From positions 990,001 to 1,022,000 of the forward strand of contig CP104013.1 of NCBI GenBank assembly GCA_025839675.1: DNA of 32,000 nt, in the 5' to 3' direction. The stretch comes from Candidatus Lokiarchaeum ossiferum. Its GTDB lineage: Archaea > Asgardarchaeota > Lokiarchaeia > Sigyniarchaeales > Promethearchaeaceae. Positions 422 to 16,220 of this stretch are shown here, in pieces. Positions within the stretch are counted from its first letter, which is position 1, and each line of letters starts with the position of its first letter. Below the pieces are notes generated by a model, which saw only the letters and a program-made list of their open reading frames with translations, was not told where the DNA came from and made no database searches. Both the position numbers and the translations under genes were made by a program.

Positions 422-1171
422 TTGACAGATATATTAACTATAGTAGTAATGGGGGCAATTTTCTTAGCAATATTAAGTGCTTTCAGTTTAGGACTTTTTA
501 TGACAATAAAAGCACTTCAAACTGAATACTATGATATAATTTATTATGGAATTGGTATTTTCTGTATGGGTTTACTCTATATATTTGAATTAAGTGGTTT
601 GAGATTTTTTCAAGAAACTGTAAAAGTCATTGGATTGTTCTTCTTCTTAATATTTTGCAAGAAAAGCTTTTATAATGAAAAATCACCAACTGTTTTCACT
701 CTCCTATATATATATCATTTCATCCTTCTTTTTATTAATCCAATTTTGAGTTTAAACTATGATAGATTTGCCATTATAATTAATCTCTTTTTTGGTTCCA
801 GTTTAATGTTTATTTTTTTATTAATCTCTATTGGAGCATGGGTCGACTATAAGAAAATAAAAGTACTAAATGTTGAACCTTTTCTTAAGATAAGATATTT
901 ATTAGTCAGTATGGCGAGTTTTCTATTTATAATAACTGGTAGTTCAATTATAATTGGGCACATTTTCCGTAAATATGGTAGTGATAACATTTATAATGTG
1001 ACAGAATTGATAACTATTTTTTCAGCACTTTTGGCTTCTATAGTTTTTTATTTAGCATTTGTAGGACCGAAGAAATTTAGAAAAATCTTTAATCGAACAT
1101 ATAAATCAATAGATATAGATTACAATGGCTTTATCGAGCAGGAAATAATAGGAGATTTATTAGATAAATAG
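422..1171 (+). CDS. Polytopic membrane protein, unknown function
   Basis: 249-aa ORF with a TTG start at 422 (alternative ATG at 449). Several long hydrophobic segments (IVVMGAIFLAILSAFSLGLFM, GIGIFCMGLLYIF, IGLFFFLIF, LLFINPILSL, LMFIFLLISIGAW, MASFLFIITGSSIIIG, IFSALLASIVFYLAF). No catalytic motif recognised. Confidence 0.6.
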   Translation: MTDILTIVVMGAIFLAILSAFSLGLFMTIKALQTEYYDIIYYGIGIFCMGLLYIFELSGLRFFQETVKVIGLFFFLIFCKKSFYNEKSPTVFTLLYIYHFILLFINPILSLNYDRFAIIINLFFGSSLMFIFLLISIGAWVDYKKIKVLNVEPFLKIRYLLVSMASFLFIITGSSIIIGHIFRKYGSDNIYNVTELITIFSALLASIVFYLAFVGPKKFRKIFNRTYKSIDIDYNGFIEQEIIGDLLDK

Positions 1172-1185
1172 AAAAATCAATTCCA

Positions 1186-2058: not shown

Positions 2059-2111
2059 TTTTCTTAACTTTTTTTTCTATATTATATTAAACTATTTCAA
2101 TATATATAAAT

Positions 2112-2150
2112 GATTCGGACATTTAATGTTGTGAGATCTCGGACATTTAA
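2112..2150. promoter_or_regulatory. Two direct repeats GAT(T/CT)CGGACATTTAA upstream of the wHTH-GTPase gene, a candidate operator
   Basis: GATTCGGACATTTAA lies at 2112-2126 and GATCTCGGACATTTAA at 2135-2150, with the TCGGACATTTAA cores 24 nt apart. A weaker third copy, TCCGAAACATTTA, lies at 2242-2254. The repeats are next to the A/T box TATATATAAA (2101-2110), 43-52 nt upstream of the start codon at 2058. Confidence 0.35.
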
Positions 2151-2311
2151 AAATATTATTTGATTTCAAACAAAAATTTTCCAAAAAATAATAGAAAATT
2201 CATAAATATATAAGGATCTAAATATGTCATATGTTCGAGAGTCCGAAACATTTATATAATCTAATTGATATGAAATATTTATGATTAGAATTTTTTTTAA
2301 AAAAAACTGGG

Positions 2312-3250
2312 ATGAAAATGATGAACACAATAGATGTAGAATTAAAACAATCAGAAACAAATGATAAAAACAATCCAATAAAAGGTAAGAAGCTAGATTC
2401 AAAAATGAATGTCTGGTCATTCTTTTTGATTACTTATTTAATAAGTTGGATTTTATGGCTTCCTGGGATTCTAAGAACATTTGTCCTTCCTGATATTTCA
2501 AGAGGGTTAGTAGAAGGATTAGCTATGTTAAGCACAATTGTTCCCAGTTGTGTTGGATTGGCTTTCATCTTCAAGGAAAATGGAAAAGAGGGACTTGTCC
2601 AAGTTTTGAAAAAATCTTTCGATTTTAAACATTACAAATGGTTACTCCCATCCTTACTTATCTACTTGGCACTTATAGTAATAAGTCACTTAATCAATCT
2701 CATAAGAAAAGTTCCCTTTCCTGTTGGTTATATATGGCAGGAATGGTGGATGATAATACCTCTCTATATTTTAATGTTAATTATTGGTGGTTCGATTGGA
2801 GAAGAATTTGGATGGAGAGGATATGCAGTCCCTGAACTACAAAAACAATTTAATGCCTATACATGTGCTCTTATAGTAGGGTTTCTCTGGGCATTTTGGC
2901 ATATTCCCACTTTCTTTATTGATGGCGCCAATCAAAGGGATGAAGGATTACCATTTATTCCGTATGTAATAACACTTGTTTGCTTTACGATTATTATGGT
3001 ATGGCAAATAAATATTTCAAAAAGTAGTTTAGTCCCTGCCTTTACACTACATACTTTGATTAATATTACAAACGAATTTTTTCCAATCCTAAATACTGAT
3101 ACGGGAGATTATAGTGCTTGGATCATTATTGATGTACTTTTAATTTTGTGCTGTATCCTAATTCCACTATTTTATCGAGTTGATAATTTTCAAAAACGAA
3201 AAAAAAGTCAATCAGATGACCCCCTTTCTGTCTCAAAAGAACTACAATAA
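2312..3250 (+). CDS. CPBP family (CAAX-protease/Abi-like) intramembrane metalloprotease
   Basis: Signature motifs EEFGWRGY (motif 1, EExxxR) and FLWAFWH (motif 2, FxxxH), plus a later histidine region (FTLHTLIN), embedded in multiple TM helices. Confidence 0.85.
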   Translation: MKMMNTIDVELKQSETNDKNNPIKGKKLDSKMNVWSFFLITYLISWILWLPGILRTFVLPDISRGLVEGLAMLSTIVPSCVGLAFIFKENGKEGLVQVLKKSFDFKHYKWLLPSLLIYLALIVISHLINLIRKVPFPVGYIWQEWWMIIPLYILMLIIGGSIGEEFGWRGYAVPELQKQFNAYTCALIVGFLWAFWHIPTFFIDGANQRDEGLPFIPYVITLVCFTIIMVWQINISKSSLVPAFTLHTLINITNEFFPILNTDTGDYSAWIIIDVLLILCCILIPLFYRVDNFQKRKKSQSDDPLSVSKELQ

Positions 3251-3311
3251 CGATATTTACAAATGAAAATGAAAAAAAAATACAAAAAAAAAAAAAAACG
3301 GGAAAACAAAA

Positions 3312-4106
3312 ATGAATCAAATATTAGAATCAAAAATGAATGTAAAGGGACAAAGAAACCCAAAAATTGTGGCTATTTGTGGTAGTCCTCGAAAAGGTCT
3401 AACGAAAAAAGCTTTAGATCAAATGAGAGATCTTTATCCTGATATTAACTTGAAAATACTCATGCTTAAAGATCTCTCATTAAAACCTTGCCTTGGTTGT
3501 TATTCGTGTGTTTTAAAAGGAGAAGATCGTTGTCCCTTAAAGGATGACCGAAAAATCATTTTGCAAGATATGATTGATGCAGATGGAGTTATTTTCGCAT
3601 CCCCTGTCTTTGTGAATACAATTACTGCCATGATGAAAAATTTCTTTGAAAGATTAGGATATCTTGCCCATAGACCAGTCTTCTTTGAGAAATATGCAAT
3701 GGTCATGTCTGTCTGTGGAGGATTTGGAACGGAACCAGCTAATAAATATATGCAAGATATTGCCCAATCTTTTGGTTTCAACGTGGTTAATTCTTTGGAA
3801 TTAAAGTACTCATCAAGATCAGAAAAGGAACATAATTATAATCTACAATTCATCAAAAAAGCGATGGTTGATTTATTAAATGGAATTAACACTCAAATCA
3901 AAACCAAACCCACAATAACTCAAGTAGTGATGTTCAATCTCTTTAAGTATATTTCATCTGTGAAAAAAGACTATTTTAGCGCAGACTACGAGTACTATAA
4001 GAGTAAATCAGGATTCTTTGATGAGAGAAAAATCAATTTCTTTTATAATTGGATCGCTAAACAACAAATTAAAAAATTTAAGAAAGATTTTGTTCAAAAT
4101 CGATAA
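3312..4106 (+). CDS. Iron-sulfur flavoprotein (Isf)-like NAD(P)H-dependent FMN reductase family protein
   Basis: Flavodoxin-like start IVAICGSPRKG (FMN_red-type GSPR motif). Compact cysteine cluster CLGCYSCVLKGEDRC (C-x2-C-x2-C-x7-C), as in methanogen Isf proteins. An alternative start at 3336 (MNVKGQ) is possible. Confidence 0.8.
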   Translation: MNQILESKMNVKGQRNPKIVAICGSPRKGLTKKALDQMRDLYPDINLKILMLKDLSLKPCLGCYSCVLKGEDRCPLKDDRKIILQDMIDADGVIFASPVFVNTITAMMKNFFERLGYLAHRPVFFEKYAMVMSVCGGFGTEPANKYMQDIAQSFGFNVVNSLELKYSSRSEKEHNYNLQFIKKAMVDLLNGINTQIKTKPTITQVVMFNLFKYISSVKKDYFSADYEYYKSKSGFFDERKINFFYNWIAKQQIKKFKKDFVQNR

Positions 4107-4130
4107 AAATAAAAACTTAAGGAGATTAAA

Positions 4131-4964
4131 ATGAAAAAATCACACTCCACGTCATATACCACCATCCCATGGCCTAAAATTCGAACATTTGTAACCGATT
4201 ATTTAGAAATGGGGATGAAGAAACACAACGTCCATGGTTACGGAGAAATTAATGTTACGGTTCCAAAATCAATCATTAAAACGATTTATGCCGAAACTAA
4301 TGAGAAAATTTCATTCACTGCATATTTTGTACATTCTCTAGCAAAAGCAGTTGGAGAACACAAAATGATGCATGCGATGAAACGCAAGAACAAATTAGTA
4401 ATTTTTGATGATGTTGATGTGGTCACGATTATCGAACGAGATATCAATGGGATGAAGTATCCACAATCTCATATCATTCGAAAAGCTGATAAGAAAACCC
4501 TAAGAGAAATTAATGATGAAATTCGTTCCGTTCAACAAAACCCCTCTCCTCAAAATGGATTCAAAAAACTAGACAAATTTGTGCAATTACCTCGCTTTAT
4601 ACGACGAATGCTCTGGAGATATCTCATGAACCATCCGAAGAAACAAAAAGAATCAATGGGAACCGTGGGGGTGTCATCAATTGGAATGTTCTCACGACAA
4701 AAAGGTTGGGGAATTCCAATTGCACTCCCTACTCTTAGTTTTACTCTAGGAGGAATATATCAAAAAAAATTTTCATCAAGGGATTCTAAACATAATTCTC
4801 AATTTGAAAATCAACTCTGTTATACAATGACAGTGGATCATGATATTATCGATGGTGCTCCTGCTGCGCGCTTTGTAACCCGATTAAGCAATATAATTGA
4901 AGACGCAGAAAGTCTTCAAACTATTTCTACCAAGATGATAGTTCCAAATTTTTTTGTAAAATAA
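4131..4964 (+). CDS. Stand-alone 2-oxoacid dehydrogenase E2-type acyltransferase catalytic domain protein (no lipoyl domain)
   Basis: C-terminal active-site signature MTVDHDIIDGAPAARFV (the DHxxxDG motif of the E2/CAT-like fold). Its 277 aa is the size of a catalytic domain only. AAGGAG lies 8 nt upstream of the ATG. Confidence 0.8.
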   Translation: MKKSHSTSYTTIPWPKIRTFVTDYLEMGMKKHNVHGYGEINVTVPKSIIKTIYAETNEKISFTAYFVHSLAKAVGEHKMMHAMKRKNKLVIFDDVDVVTIIERDINGMKYPQSHIIRKADKKTLREINDEIRSVQQNPSPQNGFKKLDKFVQLPRFIRRMLWRYLMNHPKKQKESMGTVGVSSIGMFSRQKGWGIPIALPTLSFTLGGIYQKKFSSRDSKHNSQFENQLCYTMTVDHDIIDGAPAARFVTRLSNIIEDAESLQTISTKMIVPNFFVK

Positions 4965-4970
4965 TTTAAC

Positions 4971-5837
4971 GTGATGAAAATGCAAATTGAATTTAAAAAT
5001 AATAAATCTGATACACAGAATAAAGTGGTTTTATCCTCGATTTTGTATATTTTTTCAGGAACAGGCAATTCGTTAAATGTTGCCCTGAAAATTAAAGAAA
5101 AAATGCCCGAATTCAAAATTATATCAATAGTTGATGCCTATGAAGCCAAAGAATTTGAAATCAAGGCTTCCAAAATCGGATTTGTGTTTCCAGTCTATTT
5201 TTTAGACATCCCAAATATTGTAAAGAAATTCTTTAAAAAAATGAATATCATTGGAAACCCCTATATTTTTACCATTGCAACGGCTGGAGGCAAAATTGGA
5301 AGAACTTTTAAAACTATCAGCAAAATACTCACCAAAATCGATCGAAAGATGGATGCAGAATATGGTGTAATTACTCCAGGTAATTCGATTGTTATGATAG
5401 ATGAAACAGATACTAATGAAGAAAAGGAATTGAAATTAACGACTTCACGGCAAAGAATAGAGGAGATCATAAAGTCAATAAGAATCAATGAAAAAATATC
5501 TTTTCCAACTAAAAAGCGCACATTTGGGGAATTAATGTTGTCAGTTTCAGGAAAAATATTTCTTTACCGAGTATTTAGCGATAGACTATTTCGGGTCGAT
5601 AAAGAATTATGTAAACAATGTGGAACTTGTGAATCCGTTTGTCCGATGCATAATATTAAATTGATAAACGGAAATCCGACATGGAATCGAAACTGCGAGT
5701 GTTGTGCCGCCTGTCTTCATTGGTGTCCGCATCAAGCCATCAATAATTTGAATACAAAAGGTGTCTCCCGGTATCATCACCCAGAAATATCTCTAAAGAA
5801 AATGAAATCGTTTAGTGAGGGCGTGAAACATGAGTAA
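4971..5837 (+). CDS. EFR1-type flavodoxin-like / 2x[4Fe-4S] ferredoxin fusion protein (paralog 1)
   Basis: N-terminal flavodoxin-like motif IFSGTGNS. C-terminal CKQCGTCESVCP and CECCAACLHWCP cluster motifs. GTG at 4971, ATG at 4974. Confidence 0.8.
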   Translation: MMKMQIEFKNNKSDTQNKVVLSSILYIFSGTGNSLNVALKIKEKMPEFKIISIVDAYEAKEFEIKASKIGFVFPVYFLDIPNIVKKFFKKMNIIGNPYIFTIATAGGKIGRTFKTISKILTKIDRKMDAEYGVITPGNSIVMIDETDTNEEKELKLTTSRQRIEEIIKSIRINEKISFPTKKRTFGELMLSVSGKIFLYRVFSDRLFRVDKELCKQCGTCESVCPMHNIKLINGNPTWNRNCECCAACLHWCPHQAINNLNTKGVSRYHHPEISLKKMKSFSEGVKHE

Positions 5838-6642
5838 CAATAATAACATCAATAGTAAAGAGACCCTTTTGTTTGTTTTTTCAGGAACGGGAAATTCTTT
5901 GTATGTGGCGCAAAAAGTCCAATCTCATCTCACCCATAGTCGCATAATTTCGCTCTCAAAAGCCCTAAGCGAACAGAAATTGGAATGGTCTGCACCTCAA
6001 ATCGGGTTTATTTTCCCCGTGTACTTCCGAGATATTCCCCATGTGGTGGAAAAATTCTTAAAGAATATTTCTATTAAAGATAATCCCTATCTATTTGCTA
6101 TCGCCACAAATGGGGGTGAAGGGGGTCATCCCTTCAAGCTTATGAATAAAATTCTTCACAAACAAGAGAAAAAACTTAATGCAGGATTTTTACTTGCAAT
6201 GCCCCAAAATTCAATTGTGGGTGTTGATAAATTGCATAAACACGAAGAAATAATCCAAATTCTGGATAGCTCAGAAATGGTGATTTCAGATATTATTGAA
6301 TGTATTCTTCAAAACCAAGAGAATCAAAAGGATTTTGTGAAACCTACACTATCCAATCGCATGATGGCTTGGGGAGGGAAATTCTCTATGTTTCGAGTTC
6401 TTAATGATCGGAAATTTCGGGTGGATGAAGAAAAATGCATTGGATGTGGAATATGCCAACGAGTGTGTCCCATGGAAAATATCGAATTAATTGACAAGAA
6501 ACCAAAATGGAACCATAATTGCGAGTGCTGCACTGCTTGTATTCATTGGTGTCCACGTCAAGCCGTAGTGAATGTAGGGACCGAAGGAAAACCGCGATAT
6601 CATCATCCTGAAATTTCAGTAAAGCAAATTAGCTCCTATTAA
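5830..6642 (+). CDS. EFR1-type flavodoxin-like / 2x[4Fe-4S] ferredoxin fusion protein (paralog 2)
   Basis: Same architecture as the upstream gene (VFSGTGNS, CIGCGICQRVCP, CECCTACIHWCP, shared PRYHHPEIS tail). Collinear with it along the full length. The start overlaps the upstream stop by 8 nt. Confidence 0.8.
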   Translation: MSNNNNINSKETLLFVFSGTGNSLYVAQKVQSHLTHSRIISLSKALSEQKLEWSAPQIGFIFPVYFRDIPHVVEKFLKNISIKDNPYLFAIATNGGEGGHPFKLMNKILHKQEKKLNAGFLLAMPQNSIVGVDKLHKHEEIIQILDSSEMVISDIIECILQNQENQKDFVKPTLSNRMMAWGGKFSMFRVLNDRKFRVDEEKCIGCGICQRVCPMENIELIDKKPKWNHNCECCTACIHWCPRQAVVNVGTEGKPRYHHPEISVKQISSY

Positions 6643-6754
6643 ATTTTTGAAATAAGGAACTATTGATTTTTTTTCTTATACATTTTTCAACTAACCGGTC
6701 ATAATTTTATGGTTTTTAACAATTTACACCCAATCTTAAAATTATAATAGGGTT

Positions 6755-6775
6755 GGCGGCTCTCGAGGGGAATCG
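6755..6775 (-). repeat. tRNA-3'-end-like motif, copy 1
   Basis: Plus strand GGCGGCTCTCGAGGGGAATCG. Reverse complement CGATTCCCCTCGAGAGCCGCC, followed by A. Intergenic, between the EFR1 operon and the MBL gene. Confidence 0.7.
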
Positions 6776-6851
6776 CTCTTCTTGTTAGACAATTGTCAGA
6801 CAGAACAACATAAACAAAAAAAAAAATAGTGCACATTTTGCTTAGTTTTCA

Positions 6852-6887
6852 TTGAATTATACCTCATTTCAATTCAAAAAAAAAAAA
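6852..6887 (-). terminator. Oligo-T tract (T12 on the minus strand) with a weak AT hairpin just downstream of the MBL gene stop
   Basis: A12 on the plus strand at 6876-6887 is T12 on the minus strand, starting 7 nt after the TAA stop (6894-6896). The inverted repeat TTGAATT (6852-6858) / AATTCAA (6871-6877) overlaps it. Archaeal termination typically uses oligo-T. Confidence 0.4.
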
Positions 6888-6893
6888 TAGGAA

Positions 6894-8318
6894 TTATGTT
6901 TGAATAGGTTCTTTGGTTTTATCCACCTTTTTTTCTGCTTGAGGGATTTTCCTAGTCTTCTTCAATATCAAAATGCTCCAAATGAGAATAACTGCTTCAA
7001 CGAGAAAATTGAATGCTGTCCGACCGTTAAATCCCGCGTGAATGAATTCACTAATTCGAGTTAGAAGAAGTAAACTCATAACTACTGCCACTACGGTTAT
7101 GAGGATTGGTGCTTTTAATTCTTTCTTTTTACTTATCTTCCGTCCTACAACGAACATGAGGATTAACATAAGCAAGGAGATCACAATTATAACAACTGGA
7201 GGGAACTGGGCCACATCCTTCAAAAGATTTGTAGTAATAATTACCTCAGAATATTTAGGCATACTGATAAAAAAACCATCATATCCAATGGCAATCTCAC
7301 CATCAAAAATTTTAGCAGCATCCCCTATAAATAATCTCTCAGCAATCTGAGATTCGGGGAGTGGTGGAATCATATGAGTATAAACTAAAAATTCAACATT
7401 TGCATTTTTAGCTGTTGTTGCTGCATCTTCTGGGGACATATGATAATCTTGGATATCGGTTAAAATAATTTCTCCATTACTTATACTAGAGCCACCTTCA
7501 CTAGTTGCTTCATTAATCATTTGGACAACTTCAGCATTTAACGCTTCACAAATAAGTAAATCAGCATTCGCTGATTGTGCTTCTAAATTTTCAGAATACA
7601 CAGAATCACCGCTAATTACAACACTCCGACCCTTGTATTCGAATTTATATCCCACTGCAGGTTCCACGGGATAATGATTTACGTTAAACATGGTGATAAC
7701 AATACCTGCTTCATTAAAGATCTCCATACCCGCCATAGTGTCATTACTTATTAGAATAGGGTATGCTATACCACCACTTCCATTTATTGACACATTTTCT
7801 TCACCGTGATGTGCCGTCCTATAGGTAGCATCTAATTCGAAGGCATCATTAAACCCATCTACTACTGATGTAACTCCAGGTGGACCGTATATATGTAAAG
7901 GTGCGCTATTTCCTTCGGTAGCCCATCTTTGTAGCATTAATTCTCCCAAATCGGCAATGTGGTCTGAATGAAAGTGAGTCAAAAATACTGCGTCTATTAA
8001 ACCAGGAGAAATCCCTGATAGCAAAAGATTTCTAGTTGAACCAGATCCTGAATCGACAATGAAATGTTTATCACCAGCAATTACCAAATTTGATGGACCA
8101 ACCCGATCTGGATCAGACATTGGGGATCCAGTGCCTAATAACATTACATGAAGCCCTTGATCTATATCAGGATACGATCTTTGGGACCGAGCAGCCGTAT
8201 TTACAATTTGTCTAGTTAACCAACTTGGAGGATTTGACAAAATGATCCCAATCCCCACAGATAATCCTAAAAGGATAGTTAAACTTATTCCTAGGGTAAT
8301 TTTCTGATTCTTTTGCAT
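6894..8318 (-). CDS. Membrane-anchored MBL-fold metallo-hydrolase
   Basis: The metallo-beta-lactamase motif THFHSDH is present, with later His/Asp positions (ISGDS.., VYTHMIP). There is an N-terminal TM anchor (ITLGISLTILLGLSVGIGIIL) and about three C-terminal TM helices. Confidence 0.85.
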   Translation of the reverse strand: MQKNQKITLGISLTILLGLSVGIGIILSNPPSWLTRQIVNTAARSQRSYPDIDQGLHVMLLGTGSPMSDPDRVGPSNLVIAGDKHFIVDSGSGSTRNLLLSGISPGLIDAVFLTHFHSDHIADLGELMLQRWATEGNSAPLHIYGPPGVTSVVDGFNDAFELDATYRTAHHGEENVSINGSGGIAYPILISNDTMAGMEIFNEAGIVITMFNVNHYPVEPAVGYKFEYKGRSVVISGDSVYSENLEAQSANADLLICEALNAEVVQMINEATSEGGSSISNGEIILTDIQDYHMSPEDAATTAKNANVEFLVYTHMIPPLPESQIAERLFIGDAAKIFDGEIAIGYDGFFISMPKYSEVIITTNLLKDVAQFPPVVIIVISLLMLILMFVVGRKISKKKELKAPILITVVAVVMSLLLLTRISEFIHAGFNGRTAFNFLVEAVILIWSILILKKTRKIPQAEKKVDKTKEPIQT

Positions 8319-8324
8319 TCAGTC

Positions 8325-9176
8325 TCAACTCCCATAATACACTAGCTTCATCATTTCATATGCGGTTTCCGCGCCATCATTTTGATTTTGTCCAGTAACA
8401 ATCTGGTTCGATTCATCAATGGCTACCCAACTTGCAAACATATCCCGGAAGGCAGTCGCACTAACAAAATTGGCCCCTGCTTCTCTCAGTGCGGTTTCTG
8501 GATGTAGAGGTGTGTGGGAAATTCCTAACTCTTCAATTTGTTTATCCGTCACAGCAGTCATTGTTCGACCTTCAACTAATGGATTTCCTTCAGTATCATT
8601 CGCTTGTAAAAATCCTAATGCTCCATGACACACTGAACCCAAAATAACTCCACTTGCATAGGCTTCAGTAATTTTTTGACCAAGAATAGCAGATTGCCCT
8701 AAATCATAGGCAGCACCCCATCCTCCAGCCATATACACTACATCATATTCGGAAAAATTGATATTGTCAATAATTAATGAATTTTCCACTTTATCTAACA
8801 GATCAGCATCGTTTAAGAAACGCTTATCTTGCTCTGTCCTGAGAGGCCATTTCGTACTTACTGGTTCAACCGGGATTTCTCCTCCTTGAATACTTGCTAC
8901 ATCTACTGACATGCCTGCATCCAAAAATGAATAATATGGAACAGTCATTTCTGAAGCAAATACACCAGTAGCTTCCCCTGTTGCATCTAAAGTATCATGA
9001 CTGGTAGTGATAACTAACGCTTTCTTACCACTCATATCAAAAATTTCGTCCCCTTCGAAATGTGGATGAAGACCCATACCTCGTAGTATTGATGGCAGTA
9101 ATATTGTTGTCGTACTGAGTACCACCAAAAATATTGCACATACGATTAGGGCAGTTCTTTTTCTCTTTGTCATCAT
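8325..9176 (-). CDS. DJ-1/PfpI (type 1 glutamine amidotransferase-like) family protein with an N-terminal TM/signal anchor
   Basis: Nucleophile-elbow motif GSVCHGALG and the AGGWGA motif. Hydrophobic N-terminus ALIVCAIFLVVLSTTTILL. I placed the start at ATG 9176 (MMTKRKR), preceded by AGGTGA. The ORF track extends to 9230. Confidence 0.8.
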   Translation of the reverse strand: MMTKRKRTALIVCAIFLVVLSTTTILLPSILRGMGLHPHFEGDEIFDMSGKKALVITTSHDTLDATGEATGVFASEMTVPYYSFLDAGMSVDVASIQGGEIPVEPVSTKWPLRTEQDKRFLNDADLLDKVENSLIIDNINFSEYDVVYMAGGWGAAYDLGQSAILGQKITEAYASGVILGSVCHGALGFLQANDTEGNPLVEGRTMTAVTDKQIEELGISHTPLHPETALREAGANFVSATAFRDMFASWVAIDESNQIVTGQNQNDGAETAYEMMKLVYYGS

Positions 9177-9237
9177 TGTTACTTCACCTTTTTTTGTTTG
9201 TTGTTTTGGTTTATAAAAAAAATTGCACAAATTACCA

Positions 9238-9867
9238 TCATATCATTTTAAAATTACCATTTTCAAATAAAATGTGTAATGCTTGTCTCAACTCAGCCAA
9301 CATATTATCTAACTGGGGTTTTTGCTGTGTTAGCAAATACTTGAACTTATATTCAAAACGAATACCTTGAGAGATATGAATAAGCATTTCTGTAGTTTGG
9401 TGAGTATCGGGAGAATTAATCTCACCATTTTGTTTAGCATCCTCAAGAACAGATTGAATCATTTCACGTTCTAATTTTAAAATTTTAAAGAGTTTCTCCT
9501 TAAGTTCTGGTAAAACTCGTTTTAAATTTAAATCACTTAATTGCTCAGTGATAATATTTTCATGGAAAAAATTTAGTCTCAAGCTAAACAATTCGATTAA
9601 TTTTTCTTTAATCGGGGACCTTTTAGAAAAAATCTCTTCATATTTAAGTCTAAGCTTACTTAATTCATTTAAAAGGCATTCTACATAAATTTGTTCCTTT
9701 CCATTTTTGAAATAATAGTAAATATTTGCCTGACTTTGCCCTATTTCATTCCCAATTTCCACGATAGTTGTTTTTTTATAACCATTTTTTCTGAAAATTC
9801 CCCATGCTGCACTAATGATTTCATTTTTCTTGTTTTCAATCCTGGTAGGAGATGGTTTTCGAGGCAT
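9238..9867 (-). CDS. TetR/AcrR family transcriptional regulator
   Basis: N-terminal TetR HTH pattern (IISAAWGIFRKNGYKKTTIVEIGNEIGQSQANIYYYFKNGKEQIY). About 200 aa. Lies 7 nt upstream of the DJ-1 gene on the same strand. Confidence 0.85.
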   Translation of the reverse strand: MPRKPSPTRIENKKNEIISAAWGIFRKNGYKKTTIVEIGNEIGQSQANIYYYFKNGKEQIYVECLLNELSKLRLKYEEIFSKRSPIKEKLIELFSLRLNFFHENIITEQLSDLNLKRVLPELKEKLFKILKLEREMIQSVLEDAKQNGEINSPDTHQTTEMLIHISQGIRFEYKFKYLLTQQKPQLDNMLAELRQALHILFENGNFKMI

Positions 9868-10103
9868 TTTTTAACTATTTTTTTATAATAAATATTAATT
9901 TATATAATTATTGATTTTATAAAATAATGAAAAATCTCAAGGAGAGAGCCGATCAAGAATAACCATAGGTAACACAAAATCTCGTTCTCATTCAACAAAG
10001 AATTTTAATACACCAAGAATTTTTCAGATTCTTCCATATGTCCTTAGAGAAAAATCTTGAAAGATGAAATCCGATACAAATATTATACTCCGGTGTTACA
10101 TGG

Positions 10104-10125
10104 GTAATACAACCTTATGTATTAC
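10104..10125. promoter_or_regulatory. 8-bp-stem inverted repeat GTAATACA-N6-TGTATTAC
   Basis: GTAATACA lies at 10104-10111 and TGTATTAC at 10118-10125, a perfect 8-bp stem, inside a stretch of GT(N)TACA-like reiterations (10093-10136). It sits 18 nt from repeat copy 2, in the TetR / TIGR04076 divergent spacer. Confidence 0.3.
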
Positions 10126-10142
10126 ACCTGTGATACGAGTAG

Positions 10143-10163
10143 AACCGCTCTCGAGGGGAATCG
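10143..10163 (-). repeat. tRNA-3'-end-like motif, copy 2
   Basis: Plus strand AACCGCTCTCGAGGGGAATCG. The 17-nt core GCTCTCGAGGGGAATCG is identical to copies 1 and 4. Intergenic. Confidence 0.7.
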
Positions 10164-10287
10164 ATTTTAAAAGAAATTTTTTTACAACATAGCTTTTATT
10201 AATAATCAAATAGATAATTTTGTAGAACATTGAATTTATACTTCAAAATATCTATAATCTCTGATTTATTCAAGGAAATGTGATCTT

Positions 10288-10593
10288 ATGTTAAAAAAAG
10301 TTAAAATTACTGTAATTCAACGTAGCGTGAATAAAGAGTTAGCTGAACAGCATCGCAGGGAAATTCCCCCAATTTGTAGTGTATTTGAAGAAGGACAAGA
10401 ATTTATTGTAGACTCGTTCGAAAAACCTGCAAATTTCTGCGATTGGGCATGGATGGATATCCAGCGGGTTATTATTTCTTTCTTGTTTGACGGGAATTTG
10501 AGCCATTTTTCTTCCAATCCGAACGAATTTGTGATGTGTTGTACCGATGCTTATCGGCCAGTGAGCTTTAAAATTGAAAAAATTAATGATTAA
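10288..10593 (+). CDS. TIGR04076-like small Cys-containing protein
   Basis: 101 aa. The pattern KVKITV..., EGQEFIVD, FCDWAWMDI and CCTDAYRPVSFKIEKI matches my recollection of the TIGR04076 family. Confidence 0.6.
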   Translation: MLKKVKITVIQRSVNKELAEQHRREIPPICSVFEEGQEFIVDSFEKPANFCDWAWMDIQRVIISFLFDGNLSHFSSNPNEFVMCCTDAYRPVSFKIEKIND

Positions 10594-10642
10594 AAGCTTT
10601 TGCTCATAAGAAAATAGGTCTTAACTCAAGTTTAACTCTAAA

Positions 10643-10663
10643 GGTGGTTCTCGAAGGGATTCG
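10643..10663 (-). repeat. tRNA-3'-end-like motif, copy 3 (diverged)
   Basis: Plus strand GGTGGTTCTCGAAGGGATTCG, with 3 mismatches to the 17-nt core. The reverse complement (extended by 2 nt, 10643-10665) contains TTCGAATCCCTTCGAGAACCACC. It lies between the convergent TIGR04076-like and SDR genes. Confidence 0.55.
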
Positions 10664-10689
10664 AAGAAAAAATCACATTTTTTGATTAA

Positions 10690-11547
10690 TCATTCAATTA
10701 CATCTGAGGCAATACATCTTTCAGGTTGAGAACCATCTAGATCTGTAAAACCATATTCCCTCGCTAAATTTCCAACATACAATACTTTGCTTGTTTTTTC
10801 CTTAATATTTGGGTCTGTAAGTAAAGAAACTACTGCTTTACCAATGTATCGGGTTGATTCAGTTTTTTTTAGAATTTCTATTTCTTTATAGTTATAATCA
10901 TCAACCAGATATTCACGTTTGATTTTTTCAGTTCTCATCCATCCTGGAGATAGTGATAAGACAGCTATGTTATATTTTTTCAATTCCAGAGCCATGCAGT
11001 ATGCTAACCTATTTACGGCATTTTTAGCGACATTATAGGGGAGAGGTGTAAAAAACCGACCTTCATCCCAAAAAGTAGTATTAATAATCAATCCGTACTT
11101 ATGTTCCATCATTATTGGTGCAATATATTTGCTTGTTAGAAAATGCGCACGGACTCCACTATTGAACATCTTATCCCATCTCCATAGCGGTTGTTTCCAA
11201 AAATTATCATCAAAAGTGTTATCATACCTTTCATATCCTCCCCATACATTATTAACCAAAAGATCTACTTTACCAAATTTTTCTTTTATCATTCGACTTA
11301 CTTTGATTATATCATCTTCTTTCGTATGATCACACATAATTGGATGACATTTGCCTCCTACTTCTTCAACCAATTGTGCAGTTTCATTCAAAGTTTCTGG
11401 ATTTTTTTCTGTAAAATTATGATTTAAACTTCTTCCGGTGACTACTACTGTAGCACCCTGTTGCCCTAATTCAAGTGCGATCCCACGTCCAGCACCTCTG
11501 GTTCCTCCAGTAACAATACAAATTGCATCCTTTAGATTAGAAATCAT
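10690..11547 (-). CDS. Short-chain dehydrogenase/reductase (classical SDR)
   Basis: Cofactor motif TGGTRGAGRGIA near the N-terminus, NNVWG, and catalytic YNVAK (YxxxK). Confidence 0.9.
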   Translation of the reverse strand: MISNLKDAICIVTGGTRGAGRGIALELGQQGATVVVTGRSLNHNFTEKNPETLNETAQLVEEVGGKCHPIMCDHTKEDDIIKVSRMIKEKFGKVDLLVNNVWGGYERYDNTFDDNFWKQPLWRWDKMFNSGVRAHFLTSKYIAPIMMEHKYGLIINTTFWDEGRFFTPLPYNVAKNAVNRLAYCMALELKKYNIAVLSLSPGWMRTEKIKREYLVDDYNYKEIEILKKTESTRYIGKAVVSLLTDPNIKEKTSKVLYVGNLAREYGFTDLDGSQPERCIASDVIE

Positions 11548-11659
11548 TATTTAAATTTGGAACAGTTACTATATAAATTATGAGTAAAAATATTAAAACA
11601 AAATAAAGAGAAAGTAGGGTACCAATCTTTATAAAAAAAACACGTGAAATTACAAAAGT

Positions 11660-11685
11660 GGCAGCTCTCGAGGGGAATCGAACCT
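11660..11685 (-). repeat. tRNA-3'-end-like motif, copy 4 (longest tRNA-like match)
   Basis: Plus strand GGCAGCTCTCGAGGGGAATCGAACCT. Reverse complement AGGTTCGATTCCCCTCGAGAGCTGCC, followed by A. That reads as T-loop TTCGATT, then stem and acceptor 3' strand, then a GCCA end. No complementary 5' acceptor strand lies within 100 nt, so it is a fragment and not a gene. Confidence 0.7.
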
Positions 11686-11838
11686 ATTGTAAGACTTAGG
11701 TGAGAATAAATTTCCAATCATAAAGAGAAGTCTTGTTTTTAATCCCAAATAAACTAAATATCAAAATTATCCATAACGAGATTTTTCATCATTACTTTGA
11801 ATTTCACTATGATTCCGTGCTTGATTTAATAAATCCGG

Positions 11839-12930
11839 TCAGAAAGAATAGTTCTGTTTAAACCATTCGACTGTTTTTTTAAATGCAGTCTCTTTTGAGA
11901 TGATCGGTGCATATCCAAAATCAAGAGAAGCTTGTTTGCTTATAAATGTATGATCCAAGCAAGTTTGAACAACTGAGAAACGATTCAATGTTGCTTTGGG
12001 ATACACTTTTTCAATGAGAGAAGCAAGAAAATAAGCAACTCGATAGGGAACTTTCCGTGTGGGAATGCAAAGGCCAAATTCTTGTAAATATGGTATCATG
12101 AAATCAAAAATATTTTCCCCTGGATAATCTGTAATAAAGTAGTGTTTTCCAGCAATATTAGATTCTGGAGAAAGCTTTTGTGCTGCTAAAAAATGAGCAT
12201 ATGCCGCATTTTCAGAATAAAGATGACTAAATTTAGCACACCCATTCCCAAGACGAAATTTATTCTTTTTTTGTGCCATTTTAATAAAATTTGCAAGATG
12301 ATATTTATCTCCAGGACCATACATTCCAACTGGACGCAATGCACAAGTATTCAAGCCATTTTTTCCGTTGGCTTCAAGAACTAGCTGTTCTGCAATTATT
12401 TTGCTGCGAGAATAGTGATCTTTCGGGAGCTTATCAGGATAACTCATTGAATCATCAACATTGCAGTAGGCTTTTTTTTCATCCGAACAGACCACATCCA
12501 TCGTACTGGTGTAAATTAATCTAGGAATGTGCAGTTCTTGACAAATTTGAACAACATTTTGGTTCCCAGTCACATTCACATCATAATAGGTGGATTTTGG
12601 CAATTTTGGGTCCCAAATTGCTGCTGCTGTTTGAAACACAGTATCTATATTTCGACAATTGTCTTCCACTTGCTCAATCTTTGTAATATCACCTAGTTGA
12701 AAATTCGGATGATTTGTTGAATTACTGATATCCATGATTTTTACGGAGATATCTTGATTTTCGAGTATTTGGACTAAAGCCCTTCCTAATAAACCGGTCC
12801 CACCAATAACAAGACAGTTACCCAAATCTTGCTTTTGATAAGTCTTTTCTGTGGCTTGATTAGTTAAATTATCGGTAAATTTTTCTGATTTCAGGTCATT
12901 TAAGGGATTTATAGATGAAATTTCGTTCAT
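11839..12930 (-). CDS. Extended SDR, NAD-dependent epimerase/dehydratase or 3beta-hydroxysteroid dehydrogenase/isomerase-like
   Basis: Rossmann motif VIGGTGLLGRAL after a ~35-aa N-terminal extension. Catalytic YSRSK (YxxxK). The length and the RPVGMYGPGD segment are typical of the 3beta-HSD/NSDHL-like branch. Confidence 0.75.
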   Translation of the reverse strand: MNEISSINPLNDLKSEKFTDNLTNQATEKTYQKQDLGNCLVIGGTGLLGRALVQILENQDISVKIMDISNSTNHPNFQLGDITKIEQVEDNCRNIDTVFQTAAAIWDPKLPKSTYYDVNVTGNQNVVQICQELHIPRLIYTSTMDVVCSDEKKAYCNVDDSMSYPDKLPKDHYSRSKIIAEQLVLEANGKNGLNTCALRPVGMYGPGDKYHLANFIKMAQKKNKFRLGNGCAKFSHLYSENAAYAHFLAAQKLSPESNIAGKHYFITDYPGENIFDFMIPYLQEFGLCIPTRKVPYRVAYFLASLIEKVYPKATLNRFSVVQTCLDHTFISKQASLDFGYAPIISKETAFKKTVEWFKQNYSF

Positions 12931-12979
12931 TTGTTCTCACTTTTTTAGTTTTGGAAGTATCGATAATCAAATTTTAAAA

Positions 12980-13234
12980 TTATTTAATTTGAATTGCATG
13001 TTCTGGGCATTTTTCAACACATTGCATACAGCGGGTACATAACGAAGGATATAAGGGTGTAATCCTCCAATATTGTGGATCAAGGGGATCATCTTTTTGA
13101 AATAATTTCAATGATTGATGCAAGAGAAACAATGCAGGAGGGCAAATCTTCATACATATAGCACACTGACGAGGATCAATTTTGTGCCCATCTCCACAGA
13201 TATCATAATTTATTTGAATTTTTGTTTTTTTCAT
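12980..13234 (-). CDS. Small 2x[4Fe-4S]-type ferredoxin
   Basis: 84 aa with CAICMKICP and CTRCMQCVEKCP motifs plus an additional upstream Cys. Confidence 0.75.
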   Translation of the reverse strand: MKKTKIQINYDICGDGHKIDPRQCAICMKICPPALFLLHQSLKLFQKDDPLDPQYWRITPLYPSLCTRCMQCVEKCPEHAIQIK

Positions 13235-13261
13235 TCATTGTGGCTTCCATTTAAGAAATAA

Positions 13262-14155
13262 TTAATATCTTCCGCGCACGGCTTCCATTTCATTTCGGGG
13301 AATTATTTTAAGGGCATCAAATTTGCAAGCATGCATACAAACCCCACATCCATAACAGAGGTGAGGATCAATTTCGGTTTGCTTTAAGTTTTCATTAAAA
13401 CTTATTGCTCCAAATTGACACTTCAGAACACATTGTTTGCATCCTTGACAATTATTTTCGTTATGCACCACCACATATTCGCCTTTATAAATAGATTTGA
13501 TCCCAAAATCCAATCGAGGTCGAAATCCAGCACATTCTGGCGATTTGCAAGCGCAAAGATTGTTGATTAGGGGGTATGCACCATACCAAATCGTTCCAAC
13601 ATATCCTTTTTTATTAAATTCTGTAAATTTCCGAATTGCTTCTTCTTTAGAAATTCGGAATTGACTTTCATCGGGCTCTGGGATAAAGCGGGGAAGTTTA
13701 TCAATAACATCACTCATAACCCCAAAATTAATACAACACGCTTCTTTCTCTGCTCTACTCATAAATCGGCACATGCAATATTTCATAATAATTGTATTTT
13801 CATCAACACACCGATCTAAAATCGCAATCGCATCATCGAGGGGAACTACTTGACCAATGTGCCCCTCGGCTTTGAATGGATTAAAAGTGGTTTTTTTTGT
13901 GTGTAACATGCGTTCTGCAAAAGTTTTGATCAAACGCCCCACAAGAGGAATTTGCATTTTATACCCTAAACCAACTGCGCTAAATCCTGCAACTTGTCGA
14001 ACTTGCATCGCTTCAAAAGTTTTGTATTGCTCAAGCAGAAATTCTTTCAAAAAAGCTTCATCTTTACCCATTTCTTCAAGAACTTCTGCTGTATAGTTTT
14101 TTGCATTCAAATACCATTTTCCAGCAGAACCATGTTGCAGACAATGATCACACAT
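13262..14155 (-). CDS. Cys-rich Fe-S protein with a C-terminal 4Fe-4S dicluster domain
   Basis: C-terminal CQGCKQCVLKC and CYGCGVCMHAC motifs. N-terminal MCDHC, internal CMC...CC and CAC...C clusters. The N-terminal domain was not recognised. Confidence 0.7.
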   Translation of the reverse strand: MCDHCLQHGSAGKWYLNAKNYTAEVLEEMGKDEAFLKEFLLEQYKTFEAMQVRQVAGFSAVGLGYKMQIPLVGRLIKTFAERMLHTKKTTFNPFKAEGHIGQVVPLDDAIAILDRCVDENTIIMKYCMCRFMSRAEKEACCINFGVMSDVIDKLPRFIPEPDESQFRISKEEAIRKFTEFNKKGYVGTIWYGAYPLINNLCACKSPECAGFRPRLDFGIKSIYKGEYVVVHNENNCQGCKQCVLKCQFGAISFNENLKQTEIDPHLCYGCGVCMHACKFDALKIIPRNEMEAVRGRY

Positions 14156-14560
14156 ACCTTGCTTATTTCTTAAGCAGAATCAAATTTAAACATTGAGGGT
14201 GAATCGTAATAAATAGAGCCAATTTTGCGAAATTCTTTTTCAATCTTCTCTATATAGTAGAATAGGTTAGTCTACATGGTTTTTTACATCACTTCTACAT
14301 ATAGATTAATTTTTTTTTTTGCCAATACATGAAAATGCCTAAGTTGGTAAAATCCATGAAAATGATTTTAAGATATATAATTGACCCAATTATAACATTT
14401 ATTGGTTTTAGCTATTTAAAATTCACCTTCTTGCTATTTTTTGAAGGATTGGAATTAAATATTATTCAGATTATTAGAGATGGATTCTATAGCAATAAAA
14501 TTTTTTTTAAATCTAAAAAAAAATAACCTTCATTGCATTGTATTTTAGGAAAATTTAATT

Positions 14561-14591
14561 TGAATTACTGACTAAAAAAGTCAGTTATTCA
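14561..14591. promoter_or_regulatory. Long near-perfect palindrome upstream of the DUF4386-TetR gene pair, a candidate TetR operator
   Basis: TGAATTACTGACT-AAAAA-AGTCAGTTATTCA pairs at 12 of 13 arm positions. It lies 58-88 nt upstream of the ATG at 14649. Confidence 0.4.
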
Positions 14592-14648
14592 GATTTTTAT
14601 ATCGTATTTAGAATCATGAATAATCACAATTAAAAAAGTGAGAATAAA

Positions 14649-15353
14649 ATGGACTCAATACAATCATATCAGAAACAAGCACGCGCAAGCGGAATACTTT
14701 TCTTAATGGCAATCCTTACGGGAATTATTGGCGCAGTCCTTTTCGGAGGTCTTTCCAATTTTGGAGCCGATATTACCCAGTTTTCGGAAAATCGATTGAA
14801 GATACTCTTTGGCAGCTTCATGATACTATTAATGGGGATAGCATGCGCCAGCATTGCAATTCCATTATATCCAATAATGAAAAAACAAAATCAACCAATG
14901 GCACTCGCAGCTGTAAGTTTTCGACTTTTAGAAAGTGTGTCTCACATCTTTAATGTTATACTTTTCTTAGTTTTATTAAATCTCAGTTCTGAATATGCTG
15001 CTTCCGAGGTATCGAATCAATCCTACTATGTGATTTTAAATTCTACTCTAAGTGATTTAAGTGATTCCCTTTCACTAATCGGAACAATTTGTTTTAACAT
15101 TGGAGCATTGATGTATAGTTTAATAATTTATCAAACCAAACTTCTTCCAAGATGGATGGCAAGCTTTGCTCTAGTTGGCATCTTTTTAGCCTTGATGAAT
15201 CAGATTCTCGTGTTCTTCGGTGTATACACAGATTCTAGTATTATTGCAACAATGTTTCATCTTCCGACATTAGTTTATGAATTAATTTTCGGTTTCACAA
15301 TGGTGATAAAAGGATTTAATGTAGAAGCTATTCAGCAGTTGGATCAAAAGTAA
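14649..15353 (+). CDS. DUF4386-like integral membrane protein
   Basis: 234 aa. It begins with ..ARASGILFLMAIL.. and ends with ..YELIFGFTMVIKGFNVEA, and contains a mid-protein LLPRWM segment. This matches my recollection of the DUF4386 pattern. About 6 hydrophobic helices. Confidence 0.65.
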   Translation: MDSIQSYQKQARASGILFLMAILTGIIGAVLFGGLSNFGADITQFSENRLKILFGSFMILLMGIACASIAIPLYPIMKKQNQPMALAAVSFRLLESVSHIFNVILFLVLLNLSSEYAASEVSNQSYYVILNSTLSDLSDSLSLIGTICFNIGALMYSLIIYQTKLLPRWMASFALVGIFLALMNQILVFFGVYTDSSIIATMFHLPTLVYELIFGFTMVIKGFNVEAIQQLDQK

Positions 15354-15438
15354 AACCAAATTACAAAATGAAAACACAATTTAACTCCCAAACTTTTTTT
15401 TAATAATTCATATAAATTTGCATGGTTTTTGGTAGAGA

Positions 15439-16041
15439 ATGAAGCAAGATAAGCGAAAACTCATTTTAACTGCGGCTGAACAGTGTTTTGCCAAGTATGG
15501 TTATAAAAAAACCACTATGGAAGATATTAGTCATATTGTTGGCCTCAGTAAGGCTGCAATGTATTACTATTTTAATAATAAAGGTGAAATTTATATTACT
15601 ATAGTTACTGATGCTTATAGAACCCTCGTAAGAGAATTAAGGGAAGAAATTGAAAAAGATCTATCTTGTGACAAAAAAATTATCAAATATTTTCAAAAAC
15701 GGCTTGAATGGCTCTATAAGCAATCGTATATTCTTACTCAAATCACCCAAGATGAATTAATTGCATTTAATAATTTCGGAGGAGGAATAGTTGAAGAAAT
15801 TGGGATGGAAGAACGAAAAATTTTGATGAAGGTTCTTCAAAAGTGTATAAATGACAGTATTTTCAGAAAATTTGATGTAGAAAAAGTATCAAACTATCTC
15901 TTTATTTTAGTAGATGGAATATATAATTTTTATCAACCATCAACGAGTATGGAAATTATGACTCAAGAAAGAAATGAAGTAATCAAAAACGACATATCAA
16001 CAGCACTTCAACTTTTTATTCGAGGAATGAAACCAGATTGA
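15439..16041 (+). CDS. TetR/AcrR family transcriptional regulator
   Basis: N-terminal HTH pattern ILTAAEQCFAKYGYKKTTMEDISHIVGLSKAAMYYYFNNKGEIY. 200 aa. Confidence 0.85.
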   Translation: MKQDKRKLILTAAEQCFAKYGYKKTTMEDISHIVGLSKAAMYYYFNNKGEIYITIVTDAYRTLVRELREEIEKDLSCDKKIIKYFQKRLEWLYKQSYILTQITQDELIAFNNFGGGIVEEIGMEERKILMKVLQKCINDSIFRKFDVEKVSNYLFILVDGIYNFYQPSTSMEIMTQERNEVIKNDISTALQLFIRGMKPD

Positions 16042-16140
16042 TATACGAAATTTTTATTAAAAATTTGCTATGGATCTAAAGGAAAAACTTGATTATCGTA
16101 AATATTATTCAACTAAATAATAGGTTATTGATGTTCAGAT

Positions 16141-16158
16141 ATTGATATCATAATCAAT
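16141..16158. promoter_or_regulatory. Inverted repeat ATTGAT-N6-ATCAAT upstream of glpA
   Basis: ATTGATATCATAATCAAT lies at 16141-16158, 63-80 nt upstream of the glpA ATG. ATTGATGTT at 16127-16135 is a further half-site-like copy. It shares the TTGATAT core with the sites at 20430-20557. Confidence 0.3.
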
Positions 16159-16220
16159 TCATATTAAAAAAATAAGTATTAAATGAATTATAAATAAAGT
16201 ATCAATAACGTGAAAATTCC

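Follow-up and report, generated by a model that had tools for sequence, protein, structure and literature searches.

The 32,000-nucleotide (nt) stretch of Candidatus Lokiarchaeum ossiferum DNA analysed here (CP104013.1, positions 990,001 to 1,022,000; hereafter the window) contains four copies of a short repeat that is the 3' end of an Asgard selenocysteine tRNA (tRNA-Sec), comprising the T loop, the 4-nt T stem, the 9-nt acceptor strand, the discriminator G73 and CCA. The region bounded by these copies is best read as a small chromosomal gene-cassette array. Its units hold zero to three genes each (0.1-3.4 kb), and between them stands a site of about 24 nt whose sequence suggests that it is either derived from the tRNA-Sec 3' end or a mimic of it. 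The sites cluster in one variable interval, the differences between two strains of the species begin and end inside them, and one unit is represented by an occupied site in one strain and an empty site in the other, with the crossover at the invariant centre of the site. We propose, with middling confidence, that the array recombines at these tRNA-Sec-derived attachment (att) sites through a recombinase acting in trans.

The repeat has a 17-nt core, GCTCTCGAGGGGAATCG, which occurs exactly at 6759-6775, 10147-10163 and 11664-11680 and with three mismatches at 10647-10663. All four copies are intergenic and lie on the same strand. Shuffled sequence gives an expectation of 0.02 matches, and four were reached in 0 of 100 shuffles. 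The original prediction, made from the letters of the window alone, had placed the core and its degenerate copy at these positions, between genes and in one orientation, and the exact matches and the shuffle test bear it out. For scoring, the core was extended to a 24-nt frame (T loop at positions 1-7, T stem at 8-11, acceptor strand at 12-20, G73 at 21, CCA at 22-24). In this frame true sites score 27-45 bits with a position weight matrix (PWM), against a top score of 14.5 in 40 shuffled windows. Neither the PWM scan nor a uniform fuzzy search allowing up to 7 substitutions in 24 found a further copy in the window. Aligned to one another, the copies have a short conserved core and unrelated flanks, except for a few bases common to copies 1 and 4; the TTGT[T/A]AGAC flank previously reported for these two is present 6 nt past the core. 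The four copies (sites c1 to c4, Table 1) differ in their 3' termini, and two lack G73-CCA. The terminus of c2 is a GCGGT variant, which it has in common with the single fragment in Promethearchaeum syntrophicum MK-D1.

A scan of 185,579 species-representative genomes with the 17-mer gave 54 matches, 48 of them in unrelated bacteria (about chance level) and six in Asgard archaea. In four of the six Asgard matches, and in two metagenome contigs of low guanine-plus-cytosine (GC) content, the 17-mer is the 3' end of a complete gene. The metagenome scan gave 77 matches, 74 of which are not derived from Asgard tRNA-Sec and are nearly all high-GC chance matches. Altogether the motif matches intact tRNA-Sec genes at nine related loci. 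These genes have a CUUCAAA anticodon loop (anticodon UCA), a 4-bp T stem, a long variable arm, a 7-bp D stem with a 4-nt loop, a 9-bp acceptor stem (GGCTCTTGA/TCGAGAGCC), discriminator G73 and an encoded CCA, features that agree with the published Lokiarchaeota tRNA-Sec (PMC4989117). The two intron-less 93-mers (loci L126 and L081) match Rfam RF01852 end to end with 60.5 and 62.9 bits respectively (gathering threshold 47). Of the six genes reached with the 17-mer, the other four carry a 32-nt insertion in the D stem. A gene for SepSecS (Pfam, 8e-113) lies directly downstream of the L126 tRNA-Sec, and the L154 allele carries a compensatory change of an acceptor pair from U-A to C-G. Compared with intact Asgard tRNA-Sec, copy 1 corresponds to positions 104-125 (22 nt, 100%), copy 4 to positions 100-125 (26 nt, one mismatch) and copy 2 to positions 103-120 (18 nt, 100%). 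The likeness to a tRNA 3' end that had been noticed earlier is thereby confirmed, and the tRNA with the same 3' end is identified as Asgard tRNA-Sec.

The window copies are fragments and not complete tRNA-Sec genes. ARAGORN finds no tRNA gene in the window, Rfam gives no match at E<=10 in window positions 6500-12000, and no other part of tRNA-Sec (5' part, anticodon arm or complementary acceptor strand) is present in the window, in line with the earlier description of the repeats as fragments without a 5' acceptor strand. No intact tRNA-Sec was found in the window, in the corresponding locus of the second strain (L143) or in locus L146, and the flanks upstream of c4 and of site F in the second strain show no similarity to the tRNA-Sec 5' part. 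L. ossiferum is absent among the 120 SepSecS matches listed, and the host tRNA-Sec gene was not found by that route. An alternative is that the fragments function as 3' exons, or as halves, of a tRNA-Sec gene that is split or contains an intron. The Lokiarchaeum tRNA-Sec has a 31-nt T-loop intron (PMC4989117), the tRNA-Sec at locus L157 has one of about 30 nt at TTCGAT↓T, and the homology of copy 1 starts inside the T loop. This explanation is effectively refuted: the window lacks a 5' exon, an anticodon arm and a complementary acceptor strand, the copies differ in where their homology begins on the left (tRNA positions 99-104), the four copies end differently at the 3' side with two lacking G73-CCA, and the copies coincide with strain-specific indel boundaries.

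The sites are clustered. In 47 kb scanned from the window strain (the window with 4 kb of sequence beyond it, plus an unrelated contig of 10.8 kb) only four sites occur, at 6754-11682, all in a single 4.9-kb variable interval and none in the other ~42 kb. In the second L. ossiferum assembly (CP163304.1, 6.27 Mb; hereafter strain 2), the variable interval holds six of the seven sites seen in 26.8 kb. The scattered distribution that the original prediction had named as a mark of a generic repeat is not what the scanned sequence shows. A generic intergenic repeat or a binding site for a regulatory protein, for instance a TetR operator with a chance likeness to tRNA, would suit the intergenic position of all copies, the CTCGAG palindrome in the core and the TetR genes nearby. 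It is nevertheless highly improbable, as an identity of 22-26 nt to tRNA-Sec that includes G73-CCA cannot be chance, the placement relative to gene starts and ends is not fixed, the other ~42 kb scanned from the window strain are free of the motif and the sites coincide with structural breakpoints.

Alignment of the window to strain 2 by blastn yields three homology blocks (Table 1), whose internal ends at window positions 6775, 10149, 10659 and 11655 all fall inside sites (4/4; chance ~1.4e-7). Strain 2 does not have the 3.4-kb block encoding the metallo-beta-lactamase (MBL)-fold, DJ-1 and TetR proteins and has instead a single hybrid site (site A), flanked upstream as c2 is and downstream as c1 is. 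The locus of cassette 1 is an occupied-site/empty-site pair between the strains. The TIGR04076 unit is present in both (its proteins are 96% identical), and its neighbours differ on both sides. In place of the short-chain dehydrogenase (SDR) unit, strain 2 has 3245 nt with four other site-bounded units, which carry a 188-amino-acid (aa) membrane protein, a DUF3784 protein with a 125-aa protein, a ParE/antitoxin pair and, in the last case, an empty spacer of 116 nt. Five further sites, in both orientations, bound these replacement units. In all, the variable region of strain 2 contains six sites, three per strand, within 3.8 kb, and five segments, four of which contain one or two genes (the TIGR04076 unit included) and one of which is the empty spacer. 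The conspecific genome differs by whole units exactly at the repeat boundaries, hybrid site included, as the original prediction would have it. Of the four units that it delimited, the three inner ones are variable, and the outer operon of 3beta-hydroxysteroid dehydrogenase (3beta-HSD)-like, ferredoxin and Fe-S genes is backbone conserved in both strains.

Base-by-base alignment of three junctions places the crossover at core positions 3-19, 12-19 and 12-23. The interval common to the three is positions 12-19, TCGAGAGC. Positions 12-17 are invariant in 14 of 14 confident sites, which vary at their ends, and a run of six invariant columns was obtained in 0 of 20000 permutations.

Table 1. Sites, gene units and backbone of the window, blocks of homology to strain 2 and tRNA-Sec genes with a D-stem insertion.
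Feature	Sequence	Positions	Strand	Description
Site c1	Window	6754-6777	-	AGCGATTCCCCTCGAGAGCCGCCA; 22/24 against the tRNA-Sec 3' end, including G73-CCA; PWM 44.3 bits; left boundary of the array, adjoins conserved backbone
Paired boxes	Window	6784-6801	-	GTCTGAC-AATT-GTCTAAC (minus-strand reading); 6 nt upstream of c1
Site c2	Window	10142-10165	-	ATCGATTCCCCTCGAGAGCGGTTC; 19/24; PWM 37.9 bits
Site c3	Window	10642-10665	-	TTCGAATCCCTTCGAGAACCACCT; 19/24, degenerate copy; PWM 30.3 bits
Site c4	Window	11659-11682	-	TTCGATTCCCCTCGAGAGCTGCCA; 23/24 (26 nt with one mismatch if extended); PWM 42.8 bits; right boundary of the array, adjoins conserved backbone
Cassette 1	Window	6778-10141	-	3364 nt; three minus-strand genes
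MBL-fold hydrolase	Window	6894-8318	-	Cassette 1; Pfam
DJ-1/PfpI	Window	8325-9230	-	Cassette 1; Pfam
TetR	Window	9238-9867	-	Cassette 1; Pfam
Cassette 2	Window	10166-10641	+	476 nt; one TIGR04076-family gene, 10288-10593 (NCBIfam TIGR04076, 1.5e-19)
Cassette 3	Window	10666-11658	-	993 nt; short-chain dehydrogenase, 10690-11547 (Pfam adh_short, 6e-31)
Left backbone	Window	1-6753		RagA-like GTPase, Rce1-like, FMN reductase, 2-oxoacid_dh-like, two Fer4 genes ending at 6642; no sites
Right backbone	Window	11683-18343		3beta-HSD-like 11839-12930, ferredoxin 12980-13234, Fe-S 13262-14155; no sites
Right backbone, further genes	Window			DUF4386, TetR, GlpA/GlpB-like
Homology block	L143 / window	3102-9876 / 1-6775		99.6%
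Homology block	L143 / window	9862-10372 / 10149-10659		97.8%
Homology block	L143 / window	13621-20306 / 11655-18343		98.4%
tRNA-Sec gene	L035	5843-5967	-	D-stem insertion
tRNA-Sec gene	L037	1207-1331	-	D-stem insertion
tRNA-Sec gene	L043	1172-1296	+	D-stem insertion
tRNA-Sec gene	L044	3691-3815	+	D-stem insertion
tRNA-Sec gene	L154	~4788-4913	+	D-stem insertion

In the mechanism we propose, units would be gained, lost or swapped through conservative site-specific recombination at the site. The recombinase would be encoded elsewhere in the genome and act in trans, the likeliest candidate being a tyrosine integrase whose original target was the tRNA-Sec gene. Every unit would carry its own copy of the site and would work like an integron cassette or a pdif module of Acinetobacter, not like a self-contained integrative element. 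The predicted junction of an excised circle is ...AGCGATTCCCCTCGAGAGCGGTTC..., and that expected in split reads or circles is ...CAAGAAGAGCGATTCCCCTCGAGAGCGGTTCTACTCG.... All 10 inter-site segments measure 116-3364 nt and contain no replication, structural or virion, or integrase genes (Pfam, NCBIfam); whole integrated elements would be larger than these units and would carry mobile-element genes. The earlier preference for a cassette array with a tRNA-derived site over such elements is supported by the tRNA-Sec match, the strain comparison and the clustering. The accompanying image of integration scars at a tRNA gene does not literally apply, as the array is not at a tRNA gene.

The same region could have arisen passively, if elements targeting tRNA-Sec integrated serially and lost their integrases and core genes, and generic homologous or short-homology deletion then took a different course in each strain, leaving no dedicated system today. 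The sites are tRNA 3'-end fragments, like attL/attR scars, no recombinase is nearby, and the first junction is the expected product of a deletion between the 17-bp identical repeats of c1 and c2. Tandem integration, integrase loss and gene capture are documented in archaea (PMC8371274), and tRNA-targeted elements exist in Asgard archaea (PMC8813620). We consider such an origin possible yet rather doubtful. The array adjoins neither a tRNA-Sec gene nor a 5' remnant of one in either strain, and none of the nine intact tRNA-Sec loci has an extra fragment within 4-9 kb. With hallmark genes missing from 10 of 10 segments of 0.1-3.4 kb, every element would need to have decayed completely and independently. 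An invariant site centre with variable ends is not the pattern of neutral decay, strain 2 has sites in both orientations, and paralogous small units of locus L144 (below) keep a site at the same end. A dedicated system is favoured over scars because of the size and content of the segments, the lack of a tRNA-Sec gene at the array, the non-neutral conservation of the site and the occurrence of several site variants.

Several observations weigh against active recombination at the sites. No recombinase or transposase is encoded in the 32-kb window, nor in ~16 kb upstream or 6.7 kb downstream of the strain-2 array, which matches the earlier remark that none was visible. GC content and 3-mer composition of the individual cassettes are not distinct from those of the backbone, so the composition check suggested with the original prediction does not mark the cassettes as foreign. 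The comparison covers only two genomes, and some of the 14 sites depend on one another. By itself, the difference at cassette 1 could be explained by deletion across direct repeats of 17 bp. Strain 2 has both site orientations without the palindromic hybrid sites expected of antiparallel recombination. Logan contigs are all 100% identical to the window and contain no alternative junctions, and three site variants gave 0 matches in the viral and mobile-element contigs of IMG/VR. No cassette was found at a second, unrelated locus: a search with the MBL protein of cassette 1 returned no other homologue above 65% identity, and many of the next-best homologues (<=65% identical) are bacterial. The ends of Logan contigs near the repeats were considered as a sign of population heterogeneity and rejected, as they are scattered and the contigs are 100% identical.

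Integrons, mostly in the form of integrase-less CALINs, have been reported in ~8% of Asgard genomes (Ghaly et al. 2022, PMC9668308), and the repeats might be the attC sites of an ordinary integron array of this kind. Integrons and CALINs are reportedly enriched in Asgardarchaeota and commonly carry toxin-antitoxin cassettes (PMC9668308). Like them, the array consists of small, mostly single-gene accessory cassettes that include a toxin-antitoxin pair (ParE/antitoxin) and are delimited by short sites, its content differs between close relatives at those sites, and the integrase, in integrons too, is often not beside the array. Boxes resembling RYYYAAC/GTTRRRY flank some sites, and one site (L143 10355-10378) lies in an imperfect palindrome of ~75 nt. 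The structure of the sites makes the integron explanation very unlikely all the same. A 24-nt asymmetric tRNA-Sec 3' end stands in place of the 55-141-nt attC hairpin, and a whole-site hairpin is found at one of 16 sites, with z-scores from -1.9 to +1.6 scattered around 0. R-boxes number seven in 990 nt near cores, against ~2 expected (0.0021/nt; ~3-fold), and three of the seven belong to one site. An attC site has a variable centre and conserved ends (R'' RYYYAAC, R' GTTRRRY), and the sites here show the reverse; the cassette boundaries lie at the conserved centre (positions 12-19), not at the terminal G↓TT of R'. Genes are not co-oriented but stand in either orientation, apparently with their own upstream regions, and the strain-2 sites occur in both orientations. 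The motif is also absent from the archaeal attC supplementary files available in text form (PMC9668308). No IntI is encoded nearby, which is not decisive by itself because CALINs lack it as well. Membership of attC was rejected on the hairpin, R-box, crossover and conservation-pattern tests: the array is integron-like in its working but is not a member of the integron family.

Some sites are accompanied by further boxes. The pair upstream of c1 (pair I3, Table 1), with 84% complementarity over 45 nt, is a possible accessory binding site, and GTCTNAC-like boxes also precede c4 and two strain-2 sites. Site c3 is followed by the pair GTTAAAC-TTGA-GTTAAGA. Site B of strain 2 (L143 10330-10405; site at 10355-10378) has paired GTTTAAC-type boxes on both sides within its ~75-nt imperfect palindrome, folds as single-stranded DNA with -10.5 kcal/mol (z = -1.9) and is the sole site of attC-like overall shape. 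Downstream box pairs like those of site B (TTAAAG-nTTAAC-N4-GTTTAAC) also stand after sites E and F, window copy 3 and site A of contig L036. The seventh strain-2 site, L143 1890-1913(-), in a region just beyond the window, lies 145 nt from a 570-aa open reading frame (ORF) at 33-1745(-), for which Pfam, NCBIfam and PDB gave no homology.

A close parallel outside integrons is provided by the pdif modules of Acinetobacter, which are moved by XerC/XerD (PMC6449649, PMC13141974). These too are small, include toxin-antitoxin systems and are flanked by short sites that mimic a host recombination target. They are shuffled between closely related replicons, the orientation of their sites can alternate, and their recombinase is supplied in trans by the host; the lack of a local recombinase at the array is consistent with such a supply. 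In contrast to pdif, the sites of the array mimic the tRNA-Sec 3' end instead of dif, and they are chromosomal and archaeal. Of the 11-6-11 dyad symmetry of Xer sites they show only a palindromic centre, CTCGAG, with asymmetric arms around it.

The selenocysteine tRNA is a classic integration target in bacteria, where it gives rise to selC-associated islands. In archaea, She et al. reportedly described integrative elements that target tRNA genes and capture genes as early as 2001. The array shares with archaeal tRNA-targeting elements direct repeats that correspond to the 3' part of a tRNA (PMC8371274), and loss of the integrase after integration of such elements can leave captured genes behind (PMC8371274). 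Unlike these elements, it has no intact tRNA-Sec at its ends and no integrase, split int, replication or virion genes, and its units of 0.1-3.4 kb are packed several to 4-5 kb and vary between conspecific strains. A further archaeal case of a tRNA fragment away from its gene comes from Caldiarchaeum subterraneum, in which a scattered tRNA-Thr fragment has been associated with an element of 1.8 kb that encodes a recombinase (Sugahara et al. 2012, PMC3293823). The population is heterogeneous at that fragment, and a link between mobile-element integration and tRNA introns was proposed. That fragment is a 5' one and is associated with its own recombinase, whereas the array has multiple 3' fragments, no recombinase and units that carry cargo only. 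We found no description of cassette boundaries derived from tRNA-Sec in the searchable literature. Gene cassettes bounded by sites are already known as such, and what is new here is the type of boundary site.

Related sites occur outside L. ossiferum. A Promethearchaeum sp. contig (L036) has three sites in the same orientation that bracket one gene for an RsmB/F-type methyltransferase and one for a SAP-domain protein, with a sequence variant at two of the three. On a more distant Lokiarchaeial contig (L144), three paralogous units of ~700 bp (5480-6190, 11880-12540 and 12646-13380) are 78-85% identical and share a 48-aa ORF (MIQEQWIIEENQRLDQQILDQQRENAIMREV...); two of the three end in a variant tRNA-Sec-like site. 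Lone fragments are present in P. syntrophicum MK-D1 and in one metagenome contig. The MK-D1 fragment, TTCGATTCCCCTCGAGAGCGGTCA (L018 3253-3276(+)), lies ~340 nt from a tRNA-Ala(GGC) on the opposite strand (2838-2909(-)). The exact 17-mer occurs once in the complete MK-D1 genome, and the tRNA-Sec of this strain, if present, therefore differs from it or is interrupted. At least three 3'-terminal variants of the site coexist, which points to several donors rather than local duplication. By tblastx and blastn, the window shares no synteny with tRNA-Sec loci or with other loci that carry fragments, and the contexts of four more distant TIGR04076 homologues (L150-L153) contain no sites.

Several Promethearchaeota and Hermodarchaeota genomes have an insertion of ~32 nt in the 5' strand of the tRNA-Sec D stem, GGTTAGA-(32 nt)-GTGGTCTCTGAC, which forms a hairpin of its own with compensatory changes between genomes (Table 1). 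Because of this insertion, ARAGORN and the Rfam gathering search missed some of the intact genes. The 31-nt intron published for Lokiarchaeum tRNA-Sec (PMC4989117) is in a different place, the T loop. The tRNA-Sec of L157 (JBHLNF010000001.1, ~5808-5967(+)) has two insertions, one in the D stem and one of ~30 nt in the T loop (GGAGTTCGAT-(30 nt)-TCTCC). The latter interrupts the cassette-boundary sequence and lowers its PWM score to background (12.4), and it may be relevant to the idea that introns shield tRNA genes from integration. More tentatively, Lokiarchaeia might possess a gene-capture platform of their own, functionally analogous to integrons or pdif modules, in which promoter-bearing mini-cassettes are shuffled by a recombinase from elsewhere in the genome at an att site copied from the tRNA-Sec 3' end, with the T-loop intron perhaps selected as a shield of the essential tRNA gene against this recombinase, a notion prompted by the fact that the T-loop intron of Lokiarchaeum tRNA-Sec splits exactly the site sequence. 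We regard this as a speculative extension, and an unlikely one on balance.

The neighbourhood of tRNA-Sec is conserved at several loci. The order aldo/keto reductase-Fer4, tRNA-Sec, SepSecS recurs at L126 (9010-9102(-), 7622-9097(-)), L037, L154 and L157. At L157 the reductase is duplicated and the archaeal SelB (EFsec) is ~6 kb away; in Lokiarchaeum GC14_75 the literature places tRNA-Sec near EFsec instead. At L154 a Lactamase_B (MBL-fold) gene lies between tRNA-Sec and SepSecS (4982-5881) and is largely deleted in L156 (124-140), a contig that encodes a SepSecS identical to that of L154. The 65 nt beside the tRNA are 86% identical between the two, against 99.6% beyond. This deletion was considered as a site-linked event and rejected, as its boundaries are not at a tRNA-like site.

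Other genes of the window were noted in passing. The small GTPase encoded at 1186-2058(-) is of the Gtr1/RagA type and belongs to the Asgard 'eukaryotic signature' GTPases; unusually, it has an ArsR-type winged-helix DNA-binding domain fused to its N-terminus. Two tandem paralogous genes with Fer4 domains (4971-5837(+) and 5830-6642(+)) overlap by 8 nt and have ~68% nucleotide identity over 216 nt; a third relative, at 13262-14155, is on the other side of the array. Positions 19232-30559 hold a sugar-utilisation cluster with a GntR/LacI-type regulator, two GH38 alpha-mannosidase-like proteins (1052 and 871 aa), an MFS_2 sugar transporter, a BadF/BadG/ROK-type ATPase and a 582-aa protein with a weak phosphomannose-isomerase match.

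To our knowledge, the mechanisms of gene flow in Asgard archaea are barely known, and the locus described here is a concrete, sequence-defined candidate for one in a cultured Asgard species. If the site is active, it would add a third kind of cassette system to integrons and Xer/dif modules, and it would connect the unusual placement of introns in Asgard tRNA-Sec genes with pressure from mobile elements. The site could also be used as a marker of variable regions in Asgard metagenome-assembled genomes. Were the notion of a gene-capture platform to hold, the system would be one way for small accessory genes, some of them from bacteria, to enter Asgard genomes.

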